Origin: Thermoanaerobaculia bacterium
Lineage (GTDB): Bacteria > Acidobacteriota > Thermoanaerobaculia > Gp7-AA8
DNA length: 64,000 bases
Direction of reading: 5' to 3'
NCBI GenBank assembly: GCA_036261885.1
Contig: DATAJY010000012.1
Coordinates: 143,458-207,457 of the forward strand
The notes beneath the pieces were generated by a model. The model had not been told where the DNA came from and did not search any database. It was given only the letters and a program-made list of their open reading frames with translations. This document shows, one piece after another, positions 33,868 through 63,887 of the stretch. A program made the position numbers and the translations under genes. The stretch's first letter is position 1. Each line of letters starts with the position of its first letter.

Positions 33868-34602
33868 ATGCCGCGCATCACCCGCGAAACCCAGCGCATG
33901 CTCGCCATCGCCTTCGTCGTGGCGCTGGTCGTATATCTCGTTCCGTTCACCCGCTTCGTGCTCTCCGCGCTGGTGACGCTCTTTCACGAATTCGGTCATG
34001 CGGTGATGGGCTGGATTCTCGGATATCCGTCGCTGCCCGCATTCGATCTCGTGTACGGCGGCGGGTTCACGCATCAGGGGACGTTCAAGCTGCCGATCGC
34101 CATCCTCGTCGCCGGCATCTTCGGCTACATCGCCTGGCTCAATCGCGACAATCGCAGAGGGCTGATCGTGATCGGCATCGTCGCCGCGGTGTGGCTGCTG
34201 TTCGTGACGCGCGAATGGCGTCGCGAGCTGGCGATCGCCTCCGCGGGCCATCTCGCCGAATTCGTGCTCGCGGGCGTGATGCTCTACAAATCGATCACCG
34301 GCGAAGGGTGGCGCAATCCCGACGTCGAACGTCCCCTCGGCGCGTTCATCGCCTTCTTCGTCCAGATCCACTCCACGCATTTCGCCTGGAAGCTGATCCA
34401 CGACACCGGCTTCCTCGAGTGGTACCGCGAAGGCAAAGGCGGCGCGATCATGAACGACCTCGAAGTCGTCGCCCTCGACCTCCAGATCTGGCTCGGCTGG
34501 CAACCCCAGATCGAAGGCGTAGCGAAGGGGCTGTTGTTCTTCTCCCTCGTCCCCCTGGTGATCGCCGTTTATCGCGCCTCGCGGGTGGAGATTGAGAATT
34601 GA
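33868..34602 (+). CDS. Membrane protein with HExxH motif (M50-like metalloprotease candidate)
   Basis: 244 aa, about 6 TM segments. LFHEFGHAVMG lies in the first helix region. Starts 10 nt after the protease gene. The stop codon lies inside the heptamer repeat arm. Confidence 0.6.
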   Translation: MPRITRETQRMLAIAFVVALVVYLVPFTRFVLSALVTLFHEFGHAVMGWILGYPSLPAFDLVYGGGFTHQGTFKLPIAILVAGIFGYIAWLNRDNRRGLIVIGIVAAVWLLFVTREWRRELAIASAGHLAEFVLAGVMLYKSITGEGWRNPDVERPLGAFIAFFVQIHSTHFAWKLIHDTGFLEWYREGKGGAIMNDLEVVALDLQIWLGWQPQIEGVAKGLLFFSLVPLVIAVYRASRVEIEN

Positions 34603-34699
34603 AAATTGAAAATTGAAAATTGAAATCACTCATCGCCAGTGCAAAACGCGTCGCTCTTGCGACACCTGATTTCAATTTTCAATTTTCAATTTTCAATTC
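34591..34699. repeat. Heptamer-armed hairpin element E1 (ATTGAAA x5 / TTTCAAT x4)
   Basis: The left arm 34596-34626 and right arm 34669-34699 are perfectly complementary (31 bp). The 42-nt core contains a GTCGC-TCTT-GCGAC mini-hairpin. It lies between convergent stop codons at 34602 and 34742. Confidence 0.9.
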
Positions 34700-34709
34700 A
34701 ACAAATCCC

Positions 34710-34737
34710 CAATCCTCAATCCTCAATCCTCAATCCC
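34710..34737. repeat. Tandem heptamer CAATCCT x3 plus one variant (CAATCCC)
   Basis: CAATCCTCAATCCTCAATCCTCAATCCC, directly after E1 and 5 nt before the kinase stop codon. Confidence 0.9.
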
Positions 34738-34741
34738 CGTT

Positions 34742-36190
34742 TCACCCTCCCCGAAACCACCTCTTCACCCTCTCCCACCGCCCCGGCTTCTTCTCCGCTT
34801 CCTTCTTCTCGGGCGCCGGCTCGTCGCTCTCGCGTTTCGTTTTTCTCGCGGTGCGCTCCACTTCGACTTCCGTTTTCGGGGTTTGTTCGTCGAGCAGCTT
34901 CTGTGTCGCGTCGCGTTCGGTCCGGGCGACGAGGCTTTGCGGATGGCGTTTGAGGAAATCGTCATAGAGCGCGAGCGATTCTTCGAACTTGCCGTCGCGC
35001 GTCAGTGCCCGCGCGCGTTCGAGCTCCGACTTCTTTGCCTGGTCGAGCCGCACCTGTTCGGGCGTGATCACCGCGACCGGCTTCTGCTTCGAGATGCCGC
35101 TGCGCAGTGCGACCACCGCCGTGGCCAGTCCGCCGACGAGCAGGAGCACGATCAACCAGAACGCGATCGCCGGCACGTCGCGATTGAAGCGGCGGCGCGG
35201 CGTCGCTTCCCCGGGGATCTCGTCGATGAGCGTCGGCAGCGGCGTGCCGGCATCGTCGGCGTGCGGGATCATCACCGTCTCCGCGTCGCCGAACATCGTG
35301 TTGTCGACATCGCGCGGCGCGCGTCCGCTTTCCAGATCCGCGAGCGCATCGGCCGCCGCGGCGTAACGCTCTTCCGGCGTTTTCGCGAGCAGCTTCTGGA
35401 CGACGCGCGACACCGCTTGCGGCACCGCGGGATTCACCTCATGCACCGGTGAGGGGACGAGATTGACGACGTTGTAGAGGATGCCGCTGAGCTCCGGGGA
35501 GGCGAACGGCTTGATGCCGGTGAGCAGCTCGTACATCACCACGCCGGTGGAAAAGAGGTCGCTGCGCGGGGACACCGGCGTCGTGCGTACCTGCTCCGGC
35601 GACATGTAGTTCGGCGTGCCGACGAGCGTGCGCGTCGTGGTGAGGCTCGAATGCAGCGGACGCGCGACGCCGAAATCGGCGATCTTGGCCTGCCCCTCGG
35701 AGGTGAGCAGGATGTTCGCCGGCTTGATGTCGCGATGGATGATTCCTTTCGCGTGCGCGTACGCCAGCCCGCGCAGCACGTCGCACGCGATCGACATCGC
35801 TTCGACGAGCGGCAGCGGGCGCGTCCGGCGCAGCCGCGCCAGCAGCGACTCGCCGTCGATGTACTCGGTGGCGAAGTACGAGACCACCTCGCCGTCATAG
35901 CCGACGTCGTACAACGTGACGATGTTCGGATGCTGCATCGAGCCGCAGAGCTCGGCCTCGCGTTGCAACCGCTTGTAGAACTCACGCTCGTCGATGTCGT
36001 CTTCGAAACGATGCTCGAGGTGCACCGTCTTCAGCGCGACACGGCGGCCGATGCGGCGATGGCGGGCGAGATAGACCTTGCCGATCGATCCCTTGCCGAG
36101 GAACGACTCGACGTCGTAGTCGCCGTAGCGTGCGCCGTCTTGTGAAGCTTGTTCCGTCACGTCCTCGGGTAGAGTAAGCGAAGTCGTCAT
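34742..36190 (-). CDS. Ser/Thr protein kinase with single TM and C-terminal extracytoplasmic or charged tail
   Basis: Start ATG 36190. GKGSIGKVYLA...VALK, HRDIKPANILL, DFG and TPNYMSPEQ motifs. TM segment IAFWLIVLLLVGGLATAVVAL. Confidence 0.9.
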   Translation of the reverse strand: MTTSLTLPEDVTEQASQDGARYGDYDVESFLGKGSIGKVYLARHRRIGRRVALKTVHLEHRFEDDIDEREFYKRLQREAELCGSMQHPNIVTLYDVGYDGEVVSYFATEYIDGESLLARLRRTRPLPLVEAMSIACDVLRGLAYAHAKGIIHRDIKPANILLTSEGQAKIADFGVARPLHSSLTTTRTLVGTPNYMSPEQVRTTPVSPRSDLFSTGVVMYELLTGIKPFASPELSGILYNVVNLVPSPVHEVNPAVPQAVSRVVQKLLAKTPEERYAAAADALADLESGRAPRDVDNTMFGDAETVMIPHADDAGTPLPTLIDEIPGEATPRRRFNRDVPAIAFWLIVLLLVGGLATAVVALRSGISKQKPVAVITPEQVRLDQAKKSELERARALTRDGKFEESLALYDDFLKRHPQSLVARTERDATQKLLDEQTPKTEVEVERTARKTKRESDEPAPEKKEAEKKPGRWERVKRWFRGG

Positions 36191-36201
36191 CCGGGAGCCC
36201 C

Positions 36202-38409
36202 ATGCGATCGCTCGTTCCAGTCCACATTCTTGCCAGTGTCCTGTCCGCTTTCCTCGTTCCGTTTGCCGCCGCGCAGGAGCCGATGTGCGGCACGAGCGCC
36301 GATCACGATCGTTATCTCGAAGCGCTGCACGCGCGTCCGCGCGGCGGTGTTTCCGCGCTCGCGCAGAACACGTCGATGCTGCGCGACGGCGCGTTCTATC
36401 TGCCGGCCGATGAGTTGATCCTGCCGGGCTATCACCGTTTCGATCTCGAAGGGACGTCGCTGGTGTTCGAGCCGCTGCCCAGCGGCTATGCGATGCGTCG
36501 CGAAACGGCGCCGCCAATCCTCTCCGCTCCGGCGCTTCGCGACTTCGATCAGACGCAGCCGGACGACGCCTGGTTCGTCGCGTACGACCTGCCGTTCGCG
36601 TTTCCGATCTTCGGCCGCAACGTGACGCGGATCTACATCACGAAATTCAACGAGATCCGCTTTGATCCTCCCGTCGCGCAAACGAATGCGGTGCAGTTCG
36701 GTGCAGCAGAGGTCGCGGCGACCCCAGAGCCGGTCGTCTCGCCGCTCGTCCTGACGACGAGCAAACCGCGGCTGGTCGTAAATCCCGAAGTCTCCGTCGA
36801 AGCGACGGCGAATTCCGTTCGCGTGCAATGGGTGAGCGCGACGCCGGTGGAAGTGGATGCCGAGGAGACGCTGCGGCGGCGCGTCGAGTATGTGGTGCAG
36901 GCGGAGTTGCGTGGCGACGGCACGATCGTGCTGGCCTATCCGGCTGCATCGCCACTGCTGTGGGGCGCGCCGTTGATCTCGGCCGGAACGATCGGCCGCA
37001 ATCCGATCGCCGGTCTGGCCGATCCGATCGATGTGATCTCGACGTCTGTGCCGGTGGAACTGCGGCCGATGCTCGACATCACCGGCGTCGAGACCAATCG
37101 CATCAATGACGCGGATGTGTTTTCGATTCGCGCCACGCTCGCGGCGACGCCGGATGTGACGAAGCTCGGTGAAGGCGAGTCATTTCGCTTTCTCTTCGTC
37201 GCGGAGGATGACAGCGGCTACGTCGACATCGACGCGAGCGGTGTGGTCGTGACCGGGTTCGGTGCGCCGAAAGGGGTGGCCAGCGCGATCTCCGCGAAGC
37301 TCGTGAACAATACGATCGAGCTGTTCGGCTTGCAGCGCGACGCGGGATCGTCCTCGATCGTTTCGGTGCGCGTGCTCTCGTTCCTGCGGCCGCGTCCCGT
37401 CGTCATCGATGCGACGGGCACGTTGCAGATGCGGCTCGATGCCGCGCCGAAGCGGACGTCGCTCGACCTTTCTGCCGTTGCGAATGGAACCGAGCTGACG
37501 CTGCCGATCGCCGAGACGTTCGAGCTCGCGCCGCTCGATGTGAATGCGGTGTGGGATCGGCTGCAGTACGAGCAGAAGCTCAGCGACTACGACGTTGACG
37601 GCGTGGCGATCTATCAGTCGTTCTATACCGACATCATCTTCTACGCCGGTGCGTACTCGACGCGCGGCAATCCGGCGGTCGATGGCATTGCGCCGGGGCA
37701 GCCGCCGTTCCGCCAGCGCGATCCGCGTTTTCCCGCGCTGCTGCACATGAATCAGCTGACGTACAACTACAGTGCCGCGCCGGAGACGGCCTCGAAGGTG
37801 CTGCTGCACGAGTTCGGGCATCGCTGGCTCTACTTCATCTCCATCGCCGAGGATGGTGTCGCGACGCGGTCGTTGAATCCGGTGAGCTCGCATCCCGCGG
37901 CGTACGTGCACACGCCGTCGGCGTTTCCGGTGTACGGCGAGAACGAGTCGTCGGTGATGGGCGGCGCGTATTTCGCGCAGCAGGGCGACGGCGCGTACAG
38001 GGCGCACGCCGCGAACATGGGCTACAGCTGGACCGATCTCTATCTGATGGGCCTCGCCGCGCCGGGTGAAGTGCCGAACTGGTTCTATCTCGCGGGGACG
38101 ACGTTGCCGCTGGAGTACTGGCCCGCCGAAGGCGCGGTCGTGACCAACCCCGCGCGCAAAGAGGTGGGCATCGAACAGGTTCTCGCCGCGCAGGGCTCCC
38201 GTTTTCCATCGCACGAGCTCGGCCAGCGCAAGTTCCGCCTGCTCTTCGTGCTCGTCACCGAGCCGGGCACGAATCCCACACCGGCCGAGATCGCGAAGAT
38301 GAATGAGTGGCGCGCCCTGGTCGAACGCAATTTCGCATTGGCGACGGGCGGGAGAGGGAAGTTGGCGACGGAGTTCGTCAGGCCGGCGAAAACGCGGGCG
38401 GCGCGATAG
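36202..38409 (+). CDS. Secreted large protein with HExxH zinc-metalloprotease motif
   Basis: 735 aa. Signal peptide MRSLVPVHILASVLSAFLVPFAAA. VLLHEFGHRWLYF lies near residue 535. The family assignment is not resolved. Confidence 0.65.
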   Translation: MRSLVPVHILASVLSAFLVPFAAAQEPMCGTSADHDRYLEALHARPRGGVSALAQNTSMLRDGAFYLPADELILPGYHRFDLEGTSLVFEPLPSGYAMRRETAPPILSAPALRDFDQTQPDDAWFVAYDLPFAFPIFGRNVTRIYITKFNEIRFDPPVAQTNAVQFGAAEVAATPEPVVSPLVLTTSKPRLVVNPEVSVEATANSVRVQWVSATPVEVDAEETLRRRVEYVVQAELRGDGTIVLAYPAASPLLWGAPLISAGTIGRNPIAGLADPIDVISTSVPVELRPMLDITGVETNRINDADVFSIRATLAATPDVTKLGEGESFRFLFVAEDDSGYVDIDASGVVVTGFGAPKGVASAISAKLVNNTIELFGLQRDAGSSSIVSVRVLSFLRPRPVVIDATGTLQMRLDAAPKRTSLDLSAVANGTELTLPIAETFELAPLDVNAVWDRLQYEQKLSDYDVDGVAIYQSFYTDIIFYAGAYSTRGNPAVDGIAPGQPPFRQRDPRFPALLHMNQLTYNYSAAPETASKVLLHEFGHRWLYFISIAEDGVATRSLNPVSSHPAAYVHTPSAFPVYGENESSVMGGAYFAQQGDGAYRAHAANMGYSWTDLYLMGLAAPGEVPNWFYLAGTTLPLEYWPAEGAVVTNPARKEVGIEQVLAAQGSRFPSHELGQRKFRLLFVLVTEPGTNPTPAEIAKMNEWRALVERNFALATGGRGKLATEFVRPAKTRAAR

Positions 38410-38415
38410 ACGGCG

Positions 38416-38850
38416 TCATCGCCGTTGCGCGACGTTCGATGTGTGTGCGCTCACCAGCAGCCACTTTCCTTTGCGTTTCACGTAGACGTCGGTGTAGCGC
38501 AGATCGCTTTGATAGCGGATGCCGCCGAGGGTGAAGCGCTGGAGCATGCGTCCGGTGACGACGGCGGCGTCGCCGTAGAGACGGATCTGGACTTCGCGCG
38601 GATCGTACGGCTCCATCTTCATGCCGGTGGTGGCGAGCTCGCGGATGACGTCGGCTTTGGAGCGGCGCGTGCCGCCGGGAGTGATGAGCACGTAGTCGTC
38701 GCCGAGGTTTTTCTCGAACCACTCCGCGTCGCCGGTCCAGGTGGCCACGGTGATTTCCTCATCCAGCCGTTTGATTTCCTCGAGGTCATCGGCGAGGGCG
38801 ACGCTCGAAACGAGCATCAGCGCGATCGCGAACAACGGGAATCGTTTCAT
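38416..38850 (-). CDS. DUF4440/SnoaL-like (NTF2-fold) secreted protein
   Basis: 144 aa with a signal peptide. WFEKNLGDDYVLITPGGTRRSKADVI...YTDVYVKRKGKWLLVSAHTS is the typical DUF4440 pattern. Confidence 0.7.
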   Translation of the reverse strand: MKRFPLFAIALMLVSSVALADDLEEIKRLDEEITVATWTGDAEWFEKNLGDDYVLITPGGTRRSKADVIRELATTGMKMEPYDPREVQIRLYGDAAVVTGRMLQRFTLGGIRYQSDLRYTDVYVKRKGKWLLVSAHTSNVAQRR

Positions 38851-38983
38851 CGCGCTCCGAACCTAAAGCGAGTCGGCGGGAGGGTCAAGGACATCGCGAC
38901 GCTTGATCCGGTTCCGTAACCCGAGCGGCGCGAGGTCGTGACGCGGGAATGGAATTGCGTTTCGCTGTATATAGACCGTCCGT

Positions 38984-40660
<1,677 letters not shown>

Positions 40661-40680
40661 GGCGGGCGGCGGGAGCCGCG

Positions 40681-40750
40681 TGCTCAGCCGGCGGGACGCC
40701 GGCGCTCCGCGATGATGCTGACGGAACGCCGGCGTCCCGCCGGCTGAGCA
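40681..40750. terminator. 24-bp perfect inverted repeat between convergent genes (bidirectional terminator candidate)
   Basis: TGCTCAGCCGGCGGGACGCCGGCG (40681-40704) and its exact reverse complement (40727-40750), with a 22-nt loop. No T-run. Confidence 0.5.
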
Positions 40751-40782
40751 GTGCGCCGTCCCGGCGCGGGTGGGCGGCGCTT

Positions 40783-42024
40783 CTACAACGATCGCAGGAA
40801 CGCCAGCAGGCGATTCCGATCGTTCGCGTTCAATGCATTGAAGCGATCGCGTGACGCGCGTCCCTGCCCGTCGTGCGCATTGATCGCCGCGTCGAGCGTG
40901 TTCGCGCGGCCGTCGTGCAGGAATTGCGTGACCACGCGCAGTCCCCACAGCGGTGCGGTGCGGATCTCGCGTGCGCTCGCGGCGCCCTGCGGAATGCCGT
41001 CGCCGAGGTTGCCCATGTCGTGCAGCAGGAAATCGGAGTACGGCTGATACGTGACGCGATTCAGCGCCGCGATCGCATGCGCGCCGCTCTGCAGCGACGC
41101 GACGTGACAGGAGTTGCAGCCGATCTGATTGAAGAGCTGTTCGCCTGCATTCGTGTCGGCGTTCGTGGCGCCGCGCGGCGGAGCGGCGAGAATGGCCATG
41201 AAATCGGCGAGCAGGGTCACGTCTTCGCCGCCGTCGTTCAATCCCGGGCGCGGGTTGAACTGCAGCTCCGCGCAGTTGCCGCCCGGGCAGTTTTCATTCG
41301 GGAACGCGGGGCTGGTGATCCCCATCTCGTTGAGATACGCGTCGCCGGAGAATTGCAGCAGCGTCGCGATCTGCGCCTTCCAGCCGAACTTGCCGACCGT
41401 GCGCGTGCCCGCCGCGGCGTTGTCGACCAGCGCCACGCGGCCGGCGGTGCCGTCGTTGCGTGCGGCCTGTGCCGCCGCGAGGTTGATGAACGTCTGATCG
41501 GGCGTCGCGTCGACGAGACCGAGACCGAACAGCGGCGTCGATCTGCGCCGCGTGACGACGTTCGCCTGTTGCGGCACCTGCTCCGGACGGAACGCATGCG
41601 GCGAGCCGTCGCGCGGGCCGATGGCCTGATTCTGCAGGAGCTGCCCGCCGAGGTTCATGAGTGGATCGTAGACGCCGTTCGTCGTCCGGCCGATGCGCGT
41701 CACGAGGCGATTGCTCCCGCCGCCGAGCGCGGGCTGATTGTGGCATTCGCCGCACGAGCGCCCGTTGAAGACCGGACCGAGTCCGTCGTCGACATCCTCG
41801 ACGCTCCCGAACTCCGTTCTGCCTTCATTGAAGCGCGCCGTCTGTGCGGCATTCAGGCCGGCCAGAGGTGCGCCGAAATTGACTGGCGGCTGCGGTTGCG
41901 GTTGAGGCTGTGGCGCGGGCGGTGGAGGGGTCTGCGGCCCGGCCGCACGCCTGCGGCCCTGCGCCTCCGCGCCGCCTGCCAGAACGAGTGAACAAAGCGC
42001 GGCCACTGCGAGAAATCGCTTCAT
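40783..42024 (-). CDS. Di-haem cytochrome c oxidoreductase-like protein (DUF1111-like)
   Basis: Start ATG 42024 with AAGGAG SD. Signal peptide and a Pro/Gln-rich linker. Two CxxCH motifs (CGECHN, CNSCHV). Confidence 0.8.
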   Translation of the reverse strand: MKRFLAVAALCSLVLAGGAEAQGRRRAAGPQTPPPPAPQPQPQPQPPVNFGAPLAGLNAAQTARFNEGRTEFGSVEDVDDGLGPVFNGRSCGECHNQPALGGGSNRLVTRIGRTTNGVYDPLMNLGGQLLQNQAIGPRDGSPHAFRPEQVPQQANVVTRRRSTPLFGLGLVDATPDQTFINLAAAQAARNDGTAGRVALVDNAAAGTRTVGKFGWKAQIATLLQFSGDAYLNEMGITSPAFPNENCPGGNCAELQFNPRPGLNDGGEDVTLLADFMAILAAPPRGATNADTNAGEQLFNQIGCNSCHVASLQSGAHAIAALNRVTYQPYSDFLLHDMGNLGDGIPQGAASAREIRTAPLWGLRVVTQFLHDGRANTLDAAINAHDGQGRASRDRFNALNANDRNRLLAFLRSL

Positions 42025-42037
42025 TTTCGGACTCCTT

Positions 42038-42171
42038 GGTTGTCGGTAGTCGGTTGTCGGTAATCGGTGGAACGATGAGAATTGGGGAAGTTGCGAATTG
42101 GACTGAGCGAGTGCGGTTGCGTTTACGTACGCCCTACAACCGACAAGCGACAACCGATGACTGACGACTGA
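42038..42171. repeat. Heptamer-armed element E2
   Basis: Left arm: GGTTGTC GGTAGTC GGTTGTC GGTAATC (42038-42065). 64-nt core. Right arm: CAACCGA CAAGCGA CAACCGA TGACTGA CGACTGA (42137-42171), ending on the A of the kinase ATG. Confidence 0.8.
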
Positions 42172-43822: not shown

Positions 43823-43829
43823 GGAGGCA

Positions 43830-43930
43830 GGAGTCGGGAGTCGGTTGTCGGTAGTCGGGAGACCCCAACCCACCCGCGAAAGCGAAGCGGTGATCGGGTG
43901 GTGGCCTCCCGACTCCCGACTCCCGACTCC
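43830..43930. repeat. Heptamer-armed element E3
   Basis: Left arm: GAGTCGG GAGTCGG TTGTCGG TAGTCGG GAG (43831-43861). 43-nt core ending GGGTGGTGGCC. Right arm: CTCCCGA x3 (43906-43926). Confidence 0.85.
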
Positions 43931-43994
43931 CGACTCTTCACACCTGTACTTCCGTACATGGTTGAGAGCGCAGCGCGTGCTGCATCTTCTCCTC

Positions 43995-45655: not shown

Positions 45656-45733
45656 GCCGTAACGCCGCGCCGGCATCCGTGCGGAGAAATTCCTCCCGCG
45701 CCTTCGAGGTTCACCCATTTCCGCATTCCGACG

Positions 45734-47842: not shown

Positions 47843-48760
47843 ATGCCGCACGCTGAGCCGTTGACCACCCGGATCGCCGAGGGACCGCTTCCTGCCGAAG
47901 AGGTCGTGCAGATCGGGAAACGCATCGCGGAGGCGGTGGCGATGATGGCCGTGCACGGCGAGTTGTGGCCGGGCGCGATCACCCTCGACGACGACGACAT
48001 CGACATCGGTCCGGCCGGCACCGAGGATCGCTGGCTGTATGGACACTACGCCGCGCCGGAGCGCGTTCTCGGCAAGCTCGCGACGTATGAATCCGACGTG
48101 TTTTCGATCGGCGCGATTCTGTTTCACGCGCTTTCCGGACGTCTGCCCTTCCGCGGTGACACCCCTGCGCAGGTCATGATGGCCATCTGTACCGATGCGC
48201 CGCTCGACCTCCCTCCGGATGCGCCGCGCGAGCTCGCCGCGATCATCCAGCGTTGCCTGATGCGCGAGCCGTCGGCGCGCTACCCGACGCCGGCCGTGCT
48301 GCGCGACGCGCTCGATGCTCTGACCGCGAAACGCGAATACGCCGGACGGCGCATTCTGGTCGCGGACGACGAGGCCGATCTTCGCGATGCCTACGCGCGC
48401 CTCACCTCGCGCCTCGGCATTGAAGCGGACATCGTCGGCAGCGGGCGCGAAGCGATCACGGCGCTGAAGGCGCGCCGTTACGATCTGGCGCTGCTCGACC
48501 TGAACATGCCCCGCCTCAGCGGCTGGGAAGTGCTCGATTTCCTCCGTGGCCGCACCGAGATCCGTCCCCGCCGCCTCTTCATCGTCACCGGCTTCACCGA
48601 CCAGCGCATCAGCGACGCCGACCGCGACCTCGTCGACGCCGTGATCTACAAACCAGTCGCCCCCGACGAACTCCGCACCCTCCTCACCGAATGCCTCGGC
48701 GGCGGCGAACTGATCCTGCGAAACGTGCTCCGCACGACGAAGCACCTGGCTTACGCGTAG
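47843..48760 (+). CDS. Kinase C-lobe-like (pseudokinase) domain fused to response-regulator receiver
   Basis: 305 aa. YAAPE...SDVFSIGAILFHALSGRLPF...RCLMREPSARY is the C-lobe. There is no Gly-loop/VAIK, and HGELWPGAI replaces HRDxKxxN. The C-terminal REC is ILVADDEADL...LLDLNMPRLSG...KP. Confidence 0.7.
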   Translation: MPHAEPLTTRIAEGPLPAEEVVQIGKRIAEAVAMMAVHGELWPGAITLDDDDIDIGPAGTEDRWLYGHYAAPERVLGKLATYESDVFSIGAILFHALSGRLPFRGDTPAQVMMAICTDAPLDLPPDAPRELAAIIQRCLMREPSARYPTPAVLRDALDALTAKREYAGRRILVADDEADLRDAYARLTSRLGIEADIVGSGREAITALKARRYDLALLDLNMPRLSGWEVLDFLRGRTEIRPRRLFIVTGFTDQRISDADRDLVDAVIYKPVAPDELRTLLTECLGGGELILRNVLRTTKHLAYA

Positions 48761-48763
48761 GGG

Positions 48764-49314
48764 GCATTCGCGCGTTCGTGGGGTCCCGCTTCGTGTCATC
48801 CCGCGCCTTCGGCGCGGGATCCCCTCCCGACGAAGCAGGGGGATCCCGTGCTGACGCACGGGATGACACGTGAACCGAACGTGCTCACGGTTCGTCGCGC
48901 GTTCATGGTGTCCCGTGTCATCCCGCGCCTTCGGCGGGGAGGGGATCCCGTGCTGACGCACGGGATGACACGGCAACAAACGCGTTCGCGTGTTCATCGC
49001 GCGTTCATGGTGTCCCGTGTCATCCCGCGCCTTCGGCGCGGGATCCCCTTCCCACGAAGCAGGGGGATCCCGTGCTGACGCACGGGATGACACGTGAACC
49101 GAACGTGCTCACGGTTCATCGCGCGTTCATGGTGTCCCGTGTCATCCCGCGCCTTCGGCGGGGAGGGGATCCCGTGCTGACGCACGGGATGACACGGCAA
49201 CAAACGCGTTCGCGTGTTCATCGCGCGTTCGTGATGTCCCGTGTCATCCCGCGCCTTCGGCGCGGGATCCCCTTCCCACGAAGCAGGGGATCCCGTGCTG
49301 ACGCACGGGATGAC
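48764..49314. repeat. 224-bp tandem repeat array (alternating 122- and 102-bp subunits), about 2.4 copies
   Basis: GTGTCATCCCGCGCCTTCGG recurs at 48793, 48915, 49017, 49139 and 49241 (spacings 122, 102, 122, 102). Copies 48793-49016 and 49017-49240 differ at about 5 positions. Each subunit holds perfect hairpins (ATCCCGCGCC-TTC-GGCGCGGGAT; ATCCCGTGC-TGAC-GCACGGGAT). Confidence 0.9.
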
Positions 49315-49970: not shown

Positions 49971-49980
49971 GCGCGGCGCG

Positions 49981-51306
<1,326 letters not shown>

Positions 51307-51464: not shown

Positions 51465-51593
51465 TTTCCGGCTCCTGGCATACCCGCCGGGAAATCACAC
51501 CAGACAATGACCACCAATCGCTAACCAAACCTCACGCACATCTTGTATCGTCCGCCGAACACAAATCACGTCCGTACGCGGAAGGAAACGTTG

Positions 51594-54154: not shown

Positions 54155-54162
54155 CGCGGCGG

Positions 54163-54600: not shown

Positions 54601-54623
54601 TGTGTGGGGAACCCGCGGCGATT

Positions 54624-55043: not shown

Positions 55044-55051
55044 GGGGGAAT

Positions 55052-55210
55052 GGTAGTCGGTAGTCGGTTGTCGGGAGTCGGTTGTCGGGAGTCGGGGGAC
55101 CACCACCCTCCCACGATTTCCTGCGATTGCGATGCTTCGCCAACCGCCAACCGCCAACTGCCAACCAAAGTCGGTTCCCCCGACAACCGACAACCGACTC
55201 CCGACAACCG
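55052..55210. repeat. Heptamer-armed element E4 (three heptamer families)
   Basis: Left arm: six units TAGTCGG TAGTCGG TTGTCGG GAGTCGG TTGTCGG GAGTCGG (55054-55095). The core starts CCACCACCC and contains CCAACCG CCAACCG CCAACTG CCAACCA (55140-55167). Right arm: CCGACAA CCGACAA CCGACTC CCGACAA (55180-55207). Confidence 0.85.
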
Positions 55211-55265
55211 CCTGTTAACCAACAGCGCTCTTCTCCCGTATTAGCTCCGAATCGGAGGCTTTCAC

Positions 55266-55700: not shown

Positions 55701-55702
55701 TC

Positions 55703-56278: not shown

Positions 56279-56754
56279 GTGCGTGCCGATTCGAAGCGCA
56301 GATTCTCGAAGCGGTCGAGCGCGACGCCTGGACCACGGCGTTGCGCGAGCATCTTTCCGGATGCGACGACTGCATCGCCGCCGCGACGGTCTCGCCATGG
56401 ATGAGCCGTTTCGCGAACCTCGGCGATCGCGAGCATCGTCTCCCCGACGCGTCGATTGTCTATCTCAAAGCGAAGCTGCTGCAGGGGCGTGTCGACGTCC
56501 TCCGCGCCTCGCGCCCGATGGACATCGTGCAGATGATCGCCTACCTCGTCGTCGCCGGCGGCTGGGCCGCGCTGCTGACCTGGAAGTGGCAGGCCATCGA
56601 AGCGTGGCTGCGCAGCCTCACGCCGACCGCGATCGTGCTGAAGCAAAGCTCCGGCGCCGCGGAATCGCTCTCGATGTCGTTCCTCGCCTTCGTGATCGTG
56701 CTCGCTTCCATGACCGTGATGCTCGCTCTGCACACGATCATGGCGGAAGAGTGA
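56275..56754 (+). CDS. Anti-sigma factor (zf-HC2-like N-terminus, membrane anchored)
   Basis: ATGA overlap with the sigma gene. HLSGCDDC motif, then hydrophobic segments. Confidence 0.65.
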   Translation: MSACRFEAQILEAVERDAWTTALREHLSGCDDCIAAATVSPWMSRFANLGDREHRLPDASIVYLKAKLLQGRVDVLRASRPMDIVQMIAYLVVAGGWAALLTWKWQAIEAWLRSLTPTAIVLKQSSGAAESLSMSFLAFVIVLASMTVMLALHTIMAEE

Positions 56755-56801
56755 GTGTGCGATGAGAGAGGACGCGGTCCTCTCCCATCGCTCTGCTCGG
56801 A

Positions 56802-58973: not shown

Positions 58974-59041
58974 GATCCCGGACCTCCTCGGATATGGAGA
59001 GAAGGATACGCTGAAAGGTGTCCTGCGATACGCTGCACGCC

Positions 59042-59785
59042 ATGTGGTCGCCGGATCAGTACGAGAAATTCAAGGCCGAGCGTCAGCAACCGTTTCATGA
59101 CCTTCTGTCGCTCGTGGAGAAGCGGCCGCACATGCGCCTCCTCGACCTCGGCTGCGGCACCGGCGAGCCGACGCGCGAACTGCATCTCACGCTCGAAGCG
59201 CGCGAGACCCTCGGTATCGACAACTCGGAAACGATGCTGCTCAAGGCCGGCAGTTTCGGCGGCGAAATGCTGCACTTTCAGAAGAACAGCATCGAGGCAT
59301 TCGTCACCGACGATCCGTACGATCTGATCTTCTCCAACGCCGCGCTGCACTGGGTTCCCGATCACGAGCGGCTGCTCGTGCGCCTCACGAACTTTCTCTC
59401 CGCCGACGGCCAGCTCGCCCTCCAGATGCCGGCGAACGACGACCATCCGTCGCACGTGATCGCCGCCCGCCTGGCCCGCGACTTCGGCATCGAGGCCCGG
59501 CCCGATTTCGTGCTTCCGCCGGAGCGGTACGCGCAACTGTTGCACCGTCTCGGCTACAAACGCCAGCACGTGCGGCTGCAGGTCTACGGGCACCTCCTGC
59601 CGTCCACCGCCGACGTCGTGGAATGGGTGCGCGGCGCACTGCTCACGCACTACGAAGCGGCGCTGACGAAAGAGCGTTTCGCGGAGTATCTGCAGGCCTA
59701 CCGCGAACGACTGATCGCGGAGCTCGGTGAGGAACGGCCGTTCTTCTACACGTACAAACGCGTGCTGGTCTGGGGCACGTTCTAG
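59042..59785 (+). CDS. tam: Trans-aconitate 2-methyltransferase-like SAM methyltransferase
   Basis: Internal ATG 59042. Colinear with E. coli Tam (W.P..Y..F..ER..P..DLL; LDLGCGTG; DLIFSNAALHWVPDH; LALQMP). Confidence 0.8.
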   Translation: MWSPDQYEKFKAERQQPFHDLLSLVEKRPHMRLLDLGCGTGEPTRELHLTLEARETLGIDNSETMLLKAGSFGGEMLHFQKNSIEAFVTDDPYDLIFSNAALHWVPDHERLLVRLTNFLSADGQLALQMPANDDHPSHVIAARLARDFGIEARPDFVLPPERYAQLLHRLGYKRQHVRLQVYGHLLPSTADVVEWVRGALLTHYEAALTKERFAEYLQAYRERLIAELGEERPFFYTYKRVLVWGTF

Positions 59786-59800
59786 CGCCCGCAAGCGGCG

Positions 59801-60472
59801 TCACTTCGCGATCTTCGCCTTCACACCAGCGCGGAATCGCCGGCTCATCACCAGCTCGGTGCCGTCGGTCAGCACGACCGTCGAGTCGTTGCGCAGCTCC
59901 GCGATTCGACGCAGATTCACGATGATCCGGCGATGGATGCGAATGAAGTGGCGTTGTTCGAGGCGTGCCTCGACGGCGGCCATGGCATCGCGCACGAGAT
60001 GCGATTGCTCGCGGACGTGCACGCGCACGTACTTTCCCTCGGCCTCGATCCAGTCGACGTCTTTGACCGCCACGAGAATGGTTCGGTCTCGTTTGCGCAC
60101 GGTGAAGAACGCCGAGGCGAGCTCGCGCGGCTTGCGCGTCTTCGCCCGTTCGATGGCCTGATTGAATCGATCGCTGTCGAACGGCTTGAGCAGGTAATCG
60201 ACGGCGGCGACGTCGAACGCGCGGACGGCGTAGTCGTCGTACGCGGTGATGAAGATGACCGCGGGCGGCCTGGCGTCGAGCACGTCGAAGCCGCTGCCGC
60301 CGGGCATCTGGATGTCGAGCAGCACGAGGTCGGGCTTGTCGCGCTCGATGGCCGCCTTCGCATCGGCGACGTTCGCCGCCTCACCGACGATGACGATGTC
60401 GCCGCGCGCCTCGCAGAAGCGCCGCACTTTCTCCCTTGCGAGACGTTCGTCATCGACGATCAGCGCGCGCAT
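59801..60472 (-). CDS. LytTR-family response regulator
   Basis: The ATG shares its A with the kinase TGA. The REC domain is ALIVDDERLAREK...LLDIQMPGGSGF. The LytTR DNA-binding C-terminus is FIRIHRRIIVNL. Confidence 0.9.
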   Translation of the reverse strand: MRALIVDDERLAREKVRRFCEARGDIVIVGEAANVADAKAAIERDKPDLVLLDIQMPGGSGFDVLDARPPAVIFITAYDDYAVRAFDVAAVDYLLKPFDSDRFNQAIERAKTRKPRELASAFFTVRKRDRTILVAVKDVDWIEAEGKYVRVHVREQSHLVRDAMAAVEARLEQRHFIRIHRRIIVNLRRIAELRNDSTVVLTDGTELVMSRRFRAGVKAKIAK

Positions 60473-61485
60473 CAGGCCACGCTCCACGGCAGGGTGATGT
60501 CGACGGCGAAGCCGTTCTTCGCGGCGCTGTAGCAGAACGATCCGTGCAGCGCCTCCACGCGCGCACGCGTGTTCGACAGCCCGACGCGCTCGCGCACTTC
60601 GCCTTTCGTCTCCGCGTCGTCATGCACCGAGAGGCGCAGCAGCGAGCCGTCGCGGGAGGCGCGGATGACGATGTTGCCGCCGCTCGCGCTGCGGGCGATG
60701 CCGTGATGGATCGCGTTCTCGACGAGCGGCTGCAGCAGCAGCGACGGCACCAGCGCCTTGCCGGACTGCTCCTCGACGTCGAACTGCACGCGCAGGCGAT
60801 CTTCGAAACGGATCTTCTCGATGGCGAGATAGCGCTGCGCGAGCTCGATCTCTTCGTCGAGCGGAATCTCCGCGGCCGGCTGCCGGTCGACGGTCATGCG
60901 CAGCAGTTCCGAAAGCCGCGTGAGCATCGCGTCGGCGGCCCGGACGTCGGTGTACATCAGCGACGAGACGGAGTTGAGCGTGTTGAAGAGAAAGTGCGGA
61001 TTGAGCTGCATCTTCAGCGCGTCGAGCTGCGCGCGCGAGAGCTGCGCCTCGAGCCGCGAGGCACTGCGCGAGTAATCCCACGCCAGCGTGGCCGCGAGAA
61101 TCAGCCAGTACGTCGGCAGGCTGCTGTGGAAGTTCACGCCGAACGCGGTCTTGATCGCGTACAGCAATCCTTCCTGCCGGTAGGCGGCCGATGAGAACGT
61201 GGTGAGAATCGCTTCGGCGAGCACGAGCTGAATCGCGGTCAGAACGATGCTCGCGAGCACATGCACGAAAAACGCGGAGAGCCGTCGCAGCGGAAACCGC
61301 CGCGCGAGCAGGATCACCAGCGGCGTGGCCGCGCCCCAGAGGTAGTAGTAGGTGACGTTGATCGCCACCGCTTCGCCCCAGCGCGGGCGCATGCGAAATG
61401 CCGGATTGAAGTACGCCTGCGATGCGAAATAGAAAGCGACCAGCGTCCACGCCGCGAGGCCGATCAGGACGATGCGTGCCTTCAT
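60472..61485 (-). CDS. LytS/YehU-type sensor histidine kinase
   Basis: Start ATG 61485. Membrane N-terminus and the H-box region LNPHFLFNTLNSVSSLM, with an HATPase C-terminus. Confidence 0.85.
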   Translation of the reverse strand: MKARIVLIGLAAWTLVAFYFASQAYFNPAFRMRPRWGEAVAINVTYYYLWGAATPLVILLARRFPLRRLSAFFVHVLASIVLTAIQLVLAEAILTTFSSAAYRQEGLLYAIKTAFGVNFHSSLPTYWLILAATLAWDYSRSASRLEAQLSRAQLDALKMQLNPHFLFNTLNSVSSLMYTDVRAADAMLTRLSELLRMTVDRQPAAEIPLDEEIELAQRYLAIEKIRFEDRLRVQFDVEEQSGKALVPSLLLQPLVENAIHHGIARSASGGNIVIRASRDGSLLRLSVHDDAETKGEVRERVGLSNTRARVEALHGSFCYSAAKNGFAVDITLPWSVA

Positions 61486-61606
61486 GCCGTCGATGATAGC
61501 GGCCCCGCGCGACGCGCGCGGACCGCTCGTGACCACGCGCAGCACGCTCGTGACGTTTGCGCGGCACGCGTGCCGCACCACGCCCTACGTTCATGCGCGA
61601 ATGATC

Positions 61607-63112
61607 ATGCGCAAACTCGCTCTGCTGTCGTTGCTGCTCGCTCTCCCACTGCACGCCGATCTCTGGTCGACGCTCGAGCCCGGTCCGTACACCGCGGGCT
61701 TCACGCAACTCGAGCGCTCCGATGCGTCACGCCCGTTCCGTACGCCGCGCAGGCTCGACGGCACGTTGCGCGGCGGCGACCGCGCGCGGCCGATCCGCAT
61801 CAGCATCTGGTATCCAGCGCAGAAAACCGGCGGCACGCCGCTGACGTTCGGCGATTACCTCGACCTCGTGGCGCAGGAGCAGACGTTCGCACCGGTCACG
61901 GCCGACGATCGCCGCCGCGCCGAAGAGGCGTTCTTCAACGTTCCGCTGCTGAACACGCTCACGAAAGAACAGCGCGCGGCCATGCGGCCGCTGGCGGGCC
62001 GCGCCATTCGCGATGCGAAGCCGGTCGACGCGAAGTTTCCGGTACTCCTCTACAGCCTCGGCTCCGCGGCGATCGCGCACGTCACGCCCGAGTATCTCGC
62101 CAGCCACGGGTACGTCGTCGTGCAGTCGCCGCGTCTCGGCGCGTTCGCGGGGCTGCCGCAGGACAACCGCGACGCGCTCGATCTCGAGACCAAACTGCGC
62201 GACGTCGATTTCGTGCTCAACGAAGTGCGCGCGTGGAAGCAGGCCGATCTCACGAGTCTCGCCTCGCTCGGCTTCAGCGCCGGCGGGCGATGGGCGTTGG
62301 CGGCGGCGATGAAGTATCCCGACCTGAAAGCGGTGGTGTCGCTCGACTCGGTGATGCTCTTCGACGATCCGCTGCTCGCCGCGTGGCGCACGATGCCGCA
62401 CTTCAACCTCGACGCGGTGCGCGTGCCGGTGCTGCACATCACGCGCAAAGAATTCGCCGACCAGGACAGCGCGGCGATGTGGAAGGAGCTGCGCTACGCC
62501 GATCGCACGCAGATCGTCTGCGAGCCGGGACTCGATCACTGGGACTTCCAGTCGCTCGGCCTCGCCACCGCGCTGGCCGGCGCACGCGGCGCGCTCGCGC
62601 CGCGCATCGAACAGACCTTCGTCGAGTGGAATCGCAACACGCTCGCGTTCCTCGATCAGCACCTGAAAGGAGGGAAGAAGTTCGAACCGCAGAACGCCAC
62701 GCATCTCGCCGCGCTGCCGGCGCCGGTCACCGCGCCGGAGTTTCTCGGCGCCTTCGTCGATGAGGGGACGGACGTCGCCCTCGCCGCGTTCAGGAAAGCA
62801 TGGCAGGAGCGCGGCACGCCGCCGGTCGCGGAAGCGGTCGTGAACCTCGTCGGCTACAACCTCCTCTTCGGTGGACGTGCAACCGAAGGGTTGCGCGTGC
62901 TCGAGCTCAACGTCGAAGCGTATCCGCGGTCCTCGAACACGTACGACAGTCTCGCCGACGCGTATCTCGCCGCCGGCAATCGCGCGAAGGCGCTGGAACT
63001 GACGAAGAAGGCAGCGGAAATGCTGGCGAAGGAGACGGGGCTGAACGAGCAGCGTCGGGCCGCGATTCAGGGGAGCATCGATGGGAAGTTGAAGGAGCTC
63101 GGCGGCCGGTAG
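61607..63112 (+). CDS. Secreted alpha/beta hydrolase (PAF-acetylhydrolase/dienelactone-hydrolase-like) with C-terminal TPR-like region
   Basis: Signal peptide MRKLALLSLLLALPLHA. Nucleophile elbow LGFSAGGRW. Helical-repeat tail (YDSLADAYLAAGNRAKALELTKKAAEM). Start is ATG 61601 or 61607. Confidence 0.7.
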   Translation: MRKLALLSLLLALPLHADLWSTLEPGPYTAGFTQLERSDASRPFRTPRRLDGTLRGGDRARPIRISIWYPAQKTGGTPLTFGDYLDLVAQEQTFAPVTADDRRRAEEAFFNVPLLNTLTKEQRAAMRPLAGRAIRDAKPVDAKFPVLLYSLGSAAIAHVTPEYLASHGYVVVQSPRLGAFAGLPQDNRDALDLETKLRDVDFVLNEVRAWKQADLTSLASLGFSAGGRWALAAAMKYPDLKAVVSLDSVMLFDDPLLAAWRTMPHFNLDAVRVPVLHITRKEFADQDSAAMWKELRYADRTQIVCEPGLDHWDFQSLGLATALAGARGALAPRIEQTFVEWNRNTLAFLDQHLKGGKKFEPQNATHLAALPAPVTAPEFLGAFVDEGTDVALAAFRKAWQERGTPPVAEAVVNLVGYNLLFGGRATEGLRVLELNVEAYPRSSNTYDSLADAYLAAGNRAKALELTKKAAEMLAKETGLNEQRRAAIQGSIDGKLKELGGR

Positions 63113-63122
63113 TTGCGGAGCG

Positions 63123-63773
63123 CTACCGCGGCTCCTTCAGGCCGAGAACCTCCAGCACCTTCTTCACGTCCTGCTTCTTGCCGGTCACGCGCATCCGCCC
63201 CCTGGCCAGCGCCTCATCGGAAGCAGCGCGATCGTGCGCGGCCTGCGCGAGCGTCGACATGTCGCCGGCGATGATCACGTCGGCGACGTCGGCGGGGCCG
63301 GCATGCGTTTCCATCGCGCCATTCTCGATGCGCGCGTGCATCGCCTCCCCGCCGCTTTCGAACTGCAGCACGAGCGTCGTGTTCTGCGCGCGGTCGGAAC
63401 GAAACATGACGTGCAGCCAGTGGGCGAGCCAGTCGATGTGGAACGCCTCGCCTTTGCGTTTGCCGAGGAACTGCAGGCCCCATTTCGCGAGCTCGCGCAG
63501 CACCGGCGTGAGGGCGCGGCCCGATTCGGTGAGCTCGTAGACGACGGACGCCGCCGGCGGCGGCAGCGTGCGCCGGGCGATGACGCCGCTCTCCTCGAGC
63601 TTCCTGAGGCGCGCGGCGAGAACGTCGGTGGCGATGCCCGGCGTCCCGCCGAGGAGATCGCTGTAGCGCTTCGCGCCGCTGGTGAGCTCGCGCACGAGCA
63701 GCAGCGTCCAGCGCTCGCCGACGAGATCGAGCGCCTTGGCGACGGCGCAGTACTGGTCGTAGGTTTTTTGCAT
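63123..63773 (-). CDS. HxlR-family transcriptional regulator with C-terminal SCP2-like extension
   Basis: CAVAKALDLVGERWTLLLVRELTSGAKRYSDL is the HxlR wHTH signature. 216 aa. Confidence 0.85.
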   Translation of the reverse strand: MQKTYDQYCAVAKALDLVGERWTLLLVRELTSGAKRYSDLLGGTPGIATDVLAARLRKLEESGVIARRTLPPPAASVVYELTESGRALTPVLRELAKWGLQFLGKRKGEAFHIDWLAHWLHVMFRSDRAQNTTLVLQFESGGEAMHARIENGAMETHAGPADVADVIIAGDMSTLAQAAHDRAASDEALARGRMRVTGKKQDVKKVLEVLGLKEPR

Positions 63774-63887
63774 GGTTGGTTGTCGGTTGTCGGTTGTCGG
63801 TTGTCGGGAGAACCGCTCCGCTACTGCTCAGTACCTGGTGGATGGGTGGCGGCCTCCCGACAACCGACTCCCGACTCCCGACCCCCG
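63774..63887. repeat. Heptamer-armed element E5
   Basis: Left arm: TTGTCGG x4 then GAG (63780-63810), beginning 1 nt from the hxlR-like ATG. 42-nt core ending GGGTGGCGGCC. Right arm: CCGACAA CCGACTC CCGACTC CCGACCC (63857-63884). Confidence 0.85.

Follow-up and report, generated by a model that had tools for sequence, protein, structure and literature searches.

Inverted heptamer-array hairpins in Thermoanaerobaculia: an abundant and rapidly changing class of palindromic elements

Background

Five hairpins of 100-160 nt, each consisting of two inverted arrays of tandem heptanucleotides on either side of a spacer, are present in a 64-kb stretch of the genome of a Thermoanaerobaculia bacterium (assembly GCA_036261885.1, contig DATAJY010000012.1, positions 143,458 to 207,457; hereafter the window, with all positions counted from its first letter), and they represent a class of elements that is present and abundant in soil Acidobacteriota of the class Thermoanaerobaculia. 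The conserved property of these elements, which we designate E1 to E5, is the DNA-level complementarity of two arrays with a period of 7 nt and not any particular sequence; the C-poor arm stands 5', with few exceptions, and the spacer is free to vary. We put at about even the chances that the five loci belong to a lineage-wide family of non-coding heptamer-array palindromes, similar to repetitive extragenic palindromic sequences (REPs) and bacterial interspersed mosaic elements (BIMEs), which would be maintained by replication slippage and by templating from one arm to the other. The places that they occupy are those at which an insert of approximately 100-160 nt is tolerated, namely directly after stop codons, in divergent regions and, in relatives, in frame within linkers or loops of real proteins, and we regard them on the whole as mainly selfish or neutral, and not as dedicated regulators.

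Results and discussion

Five heptamer-array hairpins in the window

Arrays were located in the window with Tandem Repeats Finder (TRF), and gene context was established by third-position GC frame analysis together with Pfam. All five elements proposed in an earlier note on this DNA were found at the places it named, with amended ends for E3 (which extends to 43936), E4 (to 55212) and E5 (63775-63889), and its description of the arms as 3-6 tandem heptamers, GTCGGNN/NNCCGAC in four elements and ATTGAAA/TTTCAAT in one, was borne out by TRF, by pattern counts and by folding. Period-7 arrays were recovered by TRF at all ten arms: 34591-34625 (ATTGAAA, 5.0 copies) and 34670-34698 (TTTCAAT, 4.1 copies) in E1, 42038-42068 and 42136-42157 in E2, 43830-43861 and 43906-43936 in E3, 55052-55095 and 55180-55210 in E4, and 63778-63807 and 63854-63888 in E5. 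If up to one mismatch is allowed, the pattern (GTCGGNN)2GTCGG matches the window 19 times, always within E2-E5, while 0.04 matches are expected from shuffled sequences. The five elements also rank among the longest inverted repeats of the window, and their predicted RNA folding energies (-50.2, -58.6, -79.6, -84.3 and -69.8 kcal/mol for E1 to E5, with z scores of -8.9, -4.4, -7.8, -10.5 and -5.9) were equalled by none of 200 shuffles. In combination, the pattern count, the inverted-repeat lengths and the folding exclude a chance origin.

The arms also generate the odd shadow open reading frames (ORFs) with a seven-residue period that had been attributed to them, given that GTT GTC GGT TGT CGG TTG TCG translates as VVGCRLS, CCG ACA ACC GAC TCC CGA CTC as PTTDSRL, and TTC AAT TTT CAA TTT TCA ATT as FNFQFSI.

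Abundance, host range and diversity of heptamers

A scan for further copies, which the earlier note had named beforehand as a test, returned at least 120 loci in each of two collections: a genome collection, searched with a pattern of four GTCGGNN units, and metagenomes, mainly from soil, searched with the full hairpin pattern. Among the matches listed from the genome collection, solitary GTCGGNN arrays occur in many phyla, while those that have their inverted partner 30-120 nt downstream cluster in Thermoanaerobaculia and in other Acidobacteriota, with a few in Thermomicrobiales, Fibrobacteres, Bacteroidota and Planctomycetota; in these matches the inverted partner of a GTCGG array lies downstream, and essentially never upstream. 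Named matches among QueA and MutS homologues all belong to Thermoanaerobaculia (Acidobacteriota). The matches listed from the metagenomic loci contain at least 138 GTCGG hairpins in 925 kb, with 276 of 298 arrays paired. Four is the modal number of units per arm (81/138 left arms and 73/138 right arms, in a scan that required at least 3 units), and the spacer has a median length of 32 nt (range 4-134 nt). The numbers of units in the left and right arms of these 138 hairpins are not correlated (r about 0), because both arms cluster at four units.

In the window and three related loci (L123, L125 and L252; 116.5 kb in total, unselected for hairpins), there is approximately one element every 8-10 kb, which would correspond to several hundred in a 5-Mb genome and fits the hundreds per genome that had been predicted. 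Logan short-read contigs of the source sample break inside E3 and E5, as is expected of multi-copy repeats, and independent short-read assemblies end within the arms of these two elements, at the start of L001 (window 43907), the start of L127 and the start of L253 (window 63805).

GTCGG is one heptamer among many. Hairpins of the same architecture occur in the same genomes with GAATGTT, GAAACCA, AGACGTG, AAGAGTG and CGAAAGT units, and further ones are formed by GTTGGCG, TAGGCGG, GTGGGGA and, in E1, ATTGAAA; the number of units is comparable, mostly 3-5. Since one architecture is built from so many heptamers, its invariant is the 7-nt period together with pairing, and not GTCGG. The 5' arm is the purine-rich arm in 38 of 44 hairpins of other heptamers (p about 1e-6), and inspection of consensus units indicates that these purine-rich 5' arms also tend towards more G than C. 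Among the few exceptions to this polarity is a hairpin at L252 11028-11106 (AGCTCNC ... GAGCTGN), in which the C-rich arm stands 5'.

This diversity bears on the suggestion that the arrays are regulatory repeats forming G-quadruplexes, as proposed for the GGGAATC repeats of Xanthomonas. Four units per arm is also the modal number there (PMC4692102), and many metagenomic copies are built of GTCGGGG or GTCGGGA units that provide four tracts of three or more G residues. However, the window units GTCGGTT, GTCGGTA and GTCGGGA have mostly runs of GG only, and hairpins of ATTGAAA, GAATGTT and GAAACCA share the architecture without any G tracts, such that the suggestion fails for the window arms and for AT-rich heptamers, and as a general account we find it scarcely credible.

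Conserved pairing and unrelated cores

Within elements, 68.5% of the variable NN cells are Watson-Crick paired, as opposed to 35% when arms are re-paired between elements. Mismatches on the sense strand that are compatible with G-U pairing are not in excess (19 vs 37), and this absence of enrichment on the strand transcribed from the upstream gene, taken with the pairing of the NN cells, makes the complementarity look like a property of DNA; selection at the RNA level was rejected on the same count.

The cores enclosed by the arms are mostly unrelated between loci. Only 13 of 7750 core pairs scored above the null, and these were mainly orthologous loci or nested arms, which inspection reveals in some long cores. 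At L136, L202 and L226 (and perhaps L169), a whole core is common to loci with unrelated flanks, constituting one true sub-family and implying that at least some copies were made by copying of the whole element. The cores of E3 and E5 share their ends, and the core of the E4 orthologue in L125 begins like that of E5, hinting at possible mosaic exchange between copies. Two general models of origin were tried and rejected: a fold-back origin, in which cores would themselves be palindromes (they are only marginally more structured than shuffles, with a mean folding z of -0.58 and 12% below -2), and telomere-like growth with old degenerate units outermost and new ones innermost, which one site had suggested (58 imperfect outer vs 44 imperfect inner units in 276 arms, p = 0.2).

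Direct repeats in the flanks are no longer than in a re-paired control, providing no sign of target-site duplication, and 271 outer flanks contain no terminal tag of the GTAG/CGTC kind, showing only a partial unit, (G)GG(A). Rfam 15 gave no match to the elements at gathering threshold, and only sub-threshold chance matches to models of miRNA precursors, in keeping with the view that this is not an already catalogued structured RNA; a search for tRNA and tmRNA found none. The picture of a multi-copy hairpin family with heptamer-array arms and non-conserved cores is consequently supported, while a classical reading as MITEs, miniature transposable elements with inverted repeats, is not, given the lack of target-site duplications and terminal tags and the mostly unrelated cores.

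More broadly, the elements might be classical non-autonomous transposons, similar to MITEs or to the doublets of REPs known as REPINs, with the arrays serving as binding sites for a transposase encoded elsewhere and acting in trans, for example a REP-associated tyrosine transposase (RAYT) or an HUH enzyme of the IS200/IS605 type working on single-stranded hairpins. Transposition of the latter type leaves no target duplication, and so the lack of one is compatible with it. Variable presence among close relatives, in-frame insertions of new sequence within conserved genes, similarity of whole elements including the core between unrelated flanks (L136, L202 and L226), constant strand polarity, and the contig breaks inside E3 and E5 are all in accord with transposition. 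Nevertheless we consider it improbable, as the cores of copies from one genome are unrelated, no GTAG/CGTC-like tag is conserved at the termini, the many co-existing heptamers would require as many enzyme specificities, filled sites are not related to empty ones by a clean insertion, and neither the window nor the other loci examined, which are only partly annotated, showed a transposase gene, RAYT included.

Structure and gene context of the window elements

The five elements occupy differing gene contexts (positions of all arms and cores refer to the plus strand). E1 lies between convergent genes for an M50B-like peptidase and a Ser/Thr protein kinase. Its 5' arm (34591-34625; ATTGAGA followed by four ATTGAAA units) overlaps the 3' codons and the TGA (34600-34602) of the peptidase gene (33868-34602), and the elements are therefore not strictly intergenic, as the earlier note had held them to be, a point reinforced by the in-frame intragenic copies of relatives. 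The core (34626-34669, 44 nt) contains a small GC hairpin, GTCGC-TCTT-GCGAC, and is partly conserved at the orthologous L123, while the 3' arm (34670-34699) comprises four TTTCAAT units and is followed by the stop codon of the minus-strand kinase gene at 34742. Beside E1 there is also an unpaired array of AATCCTC (34704-34736, 4.7 copies), which is absent at the orthologous L123.

E2 separates divergent genes. Its 5' arm (42038-42068; GGTTGTC GGTAGTC GGTTGTC GGTAATC) begins 13 nt from the minus-strand ATG (42024) of a lipoprotein-like gene equipped with an AAGGAG Shine-Dalgarno sequence, and its 3' arm (42136-42170), made of five degenerate units (ACAACCG ACAAGCG ACAACCG ATGACTG ACGACTG), extends to the ATG (42171) of a GAF histidine-kinase gene. 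The initial 15 nt of the 67-nt core (42069-42135), GGAACGATGAGAATT, are homologous to the region upstream of the histidine-kinase gene in L123. The lipoprotein-like gene (40783-42024, minus strand; MKRFLAVAALCSLVLAGG...) has no counterpart at the syntenic position of L123 or L252, in which the histidine kinase directly follows the glutaminyl-tRNA synthetase (GlnRS) gene, indicating a gene-sized indel beside E2. In L252 the GlnRS gene (5613-7306) is called in two pieces (5613-6437 and 6983-7306), suggestive of a frameshift or an assembly error.

E3 is located between co-directional genes for a LuxR-type response regulator, whose stop codon (43822) precedes it by 8 nt, and a short-chain dehydrogenase, whose ATG (43995) lies approximately 58 nt downstream. 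The four GTCGGNN units of its 5' arm (43830-43861) have GA, TT, TA and GA as their variable dinucleotides, its core (43862-43905) is partly self-complementary, with a 3' end (GGGTGGTGGCCTC) that resembles the 3' end of the E5 core, and its 3' arm (43906-43936) holds 4.4 copies of CTCCCGA.

E4 is again found between divergent genes, for a thioesterase (minus strand, ATG 55043) and a DUF6249-like protein (plus strand, ATG 55266). The 5' arm (55052-55095), with six GTCGGNN units (TA, TT, GA, TT, GA, GG), starts approximately 9-12 nt from the thioesterase ATG, with no Shine-Dalgarno sequence in between. Within the 84-nt core (55096-55179), there is an array of four CGCCAAC units (55138-55166), a one-base variant of the arm unit, and the 3' arm (55180-55212; CCGAC AA CCGAC AA CCGAC TC CCGAC AA CCGCC) is directly followed by a conserved sequence, CTGTTAACC, resembling a -35 box for the plus-strand gene. 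E5 lies in a divergent region, where its 5' arm (63775-63807; GTTGGTT, three GTCGGTT units and GTCGG) abuts the minus-strand ATG (63773) of an HxlR-family regulator gene; the core (63808-63853) is 46 nt long, and the 3' arm (63854-63889) reads CTCCCGA CAACCGA CTCCCGA CTCCCGA CCCCCGA.

Context in related loci was counted with hairpins masked and then checked with Pfam, the arrays being open in all frames. The majority of copies are co-directional with their neighbouring genes and lie close to the upstream stop codon rather than the downstream start, with the stop 0-20 nt from the hairpin in most cases. Of 91 classifiable copies, 21 are between divergent genes, and convergent contexts are under-represented (6/91 copies vs 69/473 background gene pairs).

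Proximity to start codons in the window raises the idea that, in divergent regions, outward transcripts begin within the core, so that the G-poor (NNCCGAC)n arm would serve as their unstructured 5' leader, independent of Shine-Dalgarno pairing. The arms of the window elements lie 0-12 nt from the starts of the HxlR, thioesterase and histidine-kinase genes, without a Shine-Dalgarno sequence, the polarity ensures G-poor leaders on both sides, and heptamer repeats ending 1 nt before start codons have been described (TAACTGA in Beggiatoaceae, PMC4679880). Yet most copies sit by the upstream stop in co-directional contexts, E1 and E3 each have an arm that precedes no gene, intragenic copies are unable to act in this manner, and a scan covering sigma-70-type promoters found no promoter-like site in the cores of divergent copies, all of which makes such leaders highly improbable. 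The simpler notion that inverted arrays are merely two divergent 5' leaders fails for E1, E3 and the co-directional majority.

Proximity to stop codons, on the other hand, favours structural signals that benefit the host and are under selection at particular intergenic sites, which as RNA would be Rho-independent-like terminators or structures protecting 3' ends, and as DNA would be cruciforms that take up supercoiling and so insulate divergent promoters. For bidirectional termination E1 is the best candidate, since it is situated between convergent genes, is conserved in L123 and has arms rich in A (5') and in U (3'). In our preferred reading, too, a transcribed element would probably form a very stable stem-loop, which could protect or terminate the upstream mRNA as has been proposed for REPs. 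However, three of the five window copies (E2, E4 and E5) fall in divergent regions, which does not suit a simple terminator, and the 21 divergent copies and the scarcity of convergent ones in related loci weigh against such signals as well. GTCGG copies have no U-tract, and a terminator scan finds no terminator at the elements, while E1 does have a U-rich 3' arm and an inner GC hairpin. Moreover, the transcribed strand shows no bias towards G-U, many copies are in frame within genes, where termination would be harmful, and an element is often wholly absent in close relatives. We judge selected structural signals to be unlikely overall, while regarding them as the main rival to our preferred reading, mainly on account of sites at which a hairpin persists through a complete change of sequence, as described below.

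Turnover at orthologous sites

Orthologous pairs in the metagenome set, with flanks that are 75-90% identical, retain the hairpin while the core is unrecognisable and of different length, although both members of these pairs were found by pattern, and arm conservation among them is subject to ascertainment bias. The unbiased comparisons are those anchored on QueA and MutS only. QueA identity to the window is 89% for L123, 87% for L125, 77% for L252 and 96% for L127, and the window sites were compared across these loci. At the E1 site, L123 has identical arms and a partly diverged core. In the intergenic region of E2, a hairpin of the GTCGGTT type is found in L252, and only a single unit-like remnant (GGTTGTCCG) in L123, where the neighbouring lipoprotein gene is also missing. 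E3 is present in L127, with AA/TA rather than TC in the units of the right arm, absent from L123 and L124, which have a small GC stem followed by TTT in its place, and substituted by a different repeat hairpin in L252. At the E4 site, L125 has 4+4 GTCGGNN units around an unrelated core of 115 nt (84 nt in the window), and L252 has a hairpin with GCGGATC/GATCCGC arms, all three adjoining the conserved CTGTTAACC flank.

Turnover is likewise apparent among five Thermoanaerobaculia, L142 and L248-L251, which show five different states at the MutS site, with MutS about 90% identical. One orthologous site in this set carries hairpins of the GTCGGGG, GTCGGTT or GAATGTT type, another carries a hairpin of GAATGTT, of GAAGAGT or of 9-10-nt units, and other sites have unrelated palindromes or nothing; L142, L249 and L250 have three different heptamer hairpins at one site. 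In places, both arms have changed together, as from GAAGGCA/CTTCTGC to GAAACCA/TTTCTGG at one site, or in a MutS insert from GVGSRGSGVG...PTPDSR to GVGSGEWGVG...PTPHS, which corresponds to GTCGGGR becoming GAGTGGG together with its complement. Presence and absence thus differ among relatives (at the E3 site, the MutS site and the sites of L142 and L248-L251), a comparison called for in the earlier note, and turnover is fast, involving gain and loss, change in unit number, replacement of whole arms, concerted change of both arms, and drift of the spacer.

It is here that the structural-signal explanation is at its strongest, since under it the formation of a long stem is all that would count, leaving the sequence free to change. 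The E4 site, where the GTCGGNN arms of the window and L125 enclose unrelated cores and those of L252 are GCGGATC, the E3 site with its other hairpins in L123 and L252, and the three hairpins of L142, L249 and L250 all conform to this expectation.

Further features were noted in these loci. In L249, a segment containing an HTH_31 regulator and a glyoxalase gene (8827-9580) is flanked by direct duplicates (8709-8738 and 9674-9695) that represent the right half of a GTCGGTT-type hairpin (the end of the core plus the arm), which gives the appearance that the two genes came in by recombination at the hairpin. In L250 (3501-3613) and in L142 (1708-1878, reverse complement), a rhodanese gene has a GAAACCA/TTTCTGG hairpin at its 5' end. 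In L248 (about 3790-3860), which is hairpin-free, the matching stretch encodes a lipoprotein signal peptide, MKTSAALLIFALCLLPSC, in DNA with a degenerate 7-nt periodicity.

In-frame copies inside genes of relatives

With hairpins masked, 24 of about 76 hairpin-directed ORFs read through in frame, and in relatives Pfam identifies domains of real genes on both sides of the insert, although there is no such case in the window itself. The genes concerned encode MutS (between domains I and II), the helicase Lhr (between the two RecA-like domains), UvrD (inside UvrD_C), DnaE, DnaX (after domain III), an E1 dehydrogenase (E1_dh), a GH38 mannosidase, an ABC transporter (in a linker) and an aldehyde:ferredoxin oxidoreductase (AFOR); Lhr is apparently interrupted likewise in L054, as judged by inspection of the sequence rather than by Pfam. 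The arms are translated as peptides rich in Gly/Ser/Arg/Val and in Pro/Thr/Asp/Ser/Arg. In 40 closely related MutS sequences, the loop is empty or holds one or two hairpins, a solitary arm or short remnants, and at the DNA level no clean insertion separates filled from empty alleles. In four sequences (P0124, P0140, P0143 and P0160), the loop contains a different palindrome family, with the peptide AGVPPA derived from GCCGGCGTCCCGCCGGC.

Other palindrome families in the window

The same GCCGGCGTCCCGCCGGC motif, which also fills the MutS insertion loop in other Thermoanaerobaculia, belongs to a near-perfect hairpin at 40681-40750 in the window (TGCTCAGCCGGCGGGACGCCGGCGCTCCG), located 3' of the GlnRS stop codon, with 29-bp arms that are 97% complementary. 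This constitutes a third palindrome family. A second family forms a BIME-like cluster at 48792-49314, between a kinase/receiver gene (47843-48760) and the next gene, in which a 224-nt unit is repeated 2.3 times (with sub-periods of 102 and 122 nt) as alternating palindromic modules of approximately 32 nt, GTGTCATCCCGCGCCTTCGGCGCGGGATCCCC and GGGGATCCCGTGCTGACGCACGGGATGACAC; Logan contig L001 terminates within it. At 31089-31205, a hairpin of the same family ('GTCATCCCGAGCGGAGCG...GGGATGACAC') lies between convergent genes, and its motif TGTCATCCCGAGCGGAGCGAGGGACC recurs inside the core of the E4 orthologue of L125 (about 10790-10815), a case of one palindrome family inserted within another.

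Proposed maintenance and propagation

Returning to our preferred reading of the elements as slippage-maintained, REP/BIME-like palindromes, we envisage that replication slippage expands and contracts the heptamer arrays, that template switching from arm to arm (quasipalindrome correction) would keep the arms complementary, and that copying or gene conversion between copies may seed new sites or overwrite occupied ones, with a hairpin-specific enzyme acting on single-stranded DNA as a candidate aid to propagation. Several observations weigh against this scheme. We found neither a mobilising enzyme nor a target-site duplication or terminal tag, and propagation is for that reason inferred only. 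Most cores are unique even within one genome, unlike REPINs and MITEs, which are copied as units. The retention of a hairpin through complete replacement of its sequence (at the E4 site of the window, L125 and L252, and at the sites of L142, L249 and L250) could mean that structure is selected, favouring function over selfishness. In addition, slippage in situ would hardly create an in-frame insert with a new core in a conserved gene, and slippage alone leaves unexplained the constant polarity, the four-unit optimum and a 7-nt period that is independent of sequence.

A potential explanation for these last features is that dedicated machinery builds the palindromes at the DNA level, either an HUH- or RAYT-like enzyme acting on single-stranded DNA or a form of break repair that adds 7-nt repeats 5'->3' at both ends. 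Such machinery would account for the period of 7, the approximately four units, the C-poor 5' arm on both strands and the unique spacers, as well as for in-frame inserts arising in one step and the frequency of replication and repair genes among the hosts. The telomere-like gradient with new units inside, which is predicted by the dedicated-enzyme model, was not found in general across 276 arms, and we view this explanation as quite improbable.

Significance and comparison with known systems

If our reading is correct, Thermoanaerobaculia, a widespread and mostly uncultured class of soil bacteria, carry hundreds of palindromes with microsatellite stems in each genome, which reshape intergenic regions, break short-read assemblies and add peptides to MutS, Lhr, UvrD, DnaE and DnaX. 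In practical terms, the elements give rise to spurious ORFs, broken contigs and wrongly called gene starts when metagenome-assembled genomes are annotated. They would also provide a tractable system for studying the origin of the 7-nt period, fixed polarity and concerted evolution between arms, and they join two separate literatures, on the excess of heptamer simple sequence repeats (SSRs) in prokaryotes and on palindromes of the REP kind and of the kind of Rickettsia palindromic elements (RPEs).

As architectural analogies go, the Foldback (FB) transposons of Drosophila also possess inverted arms of short tandem repeats, with variable arm length and a heterogeneous centre, but these are eukaryotic, of kilobase scale and have a known transposase, and the likeness extends to architecture only. 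MITEs share with our elements the possession of terminal inverted repeats (here the arms), and differ in having target-site duplications and a common interior.

We know of no RAYT for heptamer-array palindromes, and this separates them from REPs, BIMEs and REPINs, to which they are otherwise similar in several respects. The distance of REPs from the 3' ends of ORFs is under 20 bp, inverted dimers are frequent, and genes of replication and repair are common hosts of the intragenic ones (Di Nocera et al. 2013, PMC3733652; see also Bertels & Rainey 2011, PMC3116915). Like REPs, the elements described here are high-copy palindromes that are mostly extragenic, usually less than 20 nt past stop codons, and free of target-site duplications, with intragenic copies in replication and repair genes; REPs likewise form larger hairpins when in inverted pairs, and their families are lineage-specific and polymorphic between strains. 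However, a REP is a self-palindromic unit of 20-40 bp with an unpaired GTAG/CGTC tag, whereas the arms here are untagged direct arrays of period 7 that form a palindrome, of 100-160 nt, only when paired, and while the copies of a REPIN share their spacer, the spacers here are mostly unique.

RPEs are the classic case of in-frame palindromic inserts (reviewed in PMC10969869). They resemble the intragenic copies of Thermoanaerobaculia in being palindromic inserts (approximately 100-150 bp in RPEs), in frame within unrelated housekeeping genes and translated as an extra peptide, but they are conserved along their whole length, restricted to Rickettsia and devoid of tandem-repeat arms.

As far as the account in PMC4679880 goes, heptamers are the commonest unit of long SSRs in prokaryotes, possibly for reasons related to the polymerase (Mrazek 2007). 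The short tandemly repeated repetitive (STRR) sequences of cyanobacteria and the TAACTGA repeats of Beggiatoaceae have a 7-nt period and 2-6 units and are intergenic, sometimes near start codons, as in our elements, although they are mainly direct arrays that are not paired into hairpins; MacGregor recorded only one inverted case among 170 sets (PMC4679880).

The closest counterpart, and the reason why the architecture cannot be called undescribed, as the earlier note had it, is found in Xanthomonas, in which there are 70-75 convergent pairs of GGGAATC arrays per genome, able to form stem-loops or cruciforms, with a four-unit mode, a position near the upstream ORF and a pair type that is kept between species, and for which the authors favoured G-quadruplexes (Rehm et al. 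2015, PMC4692102). Both systems consist of tandem heptamer arrays on opposite strands, convergent and close together, with the G-rich array 5' on each strand, four units as the mode, a mostly intergenic location near the upstream ORF, and conservation of pair type between species with varying lengths. They differ in phylum and in heptamer, and many heptamers co-exist in Thermoanaerobaculia; the window arms cannot form G-quadruplexes, given that GTCGGTT, GTCGGTA and ATTGAAA lack tracts of three G residues; the copies of Thermoanaerobaculia are not depleted between divergent genes; and relatives have frequent in-frame intragenic copies and a documented turnover of the whole sequence at fixed sites. 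The elements depart from the definitions of both REPs and MITEs and are best filed with paired heptamer SSRs that show REP- and RPE-like behaviour, to which the Thermoanaerobaculia variant adds its many co-existing heptamers, its polarity rule, its in-frame copies in repair genes and its turnover of sequence at fixed sites.

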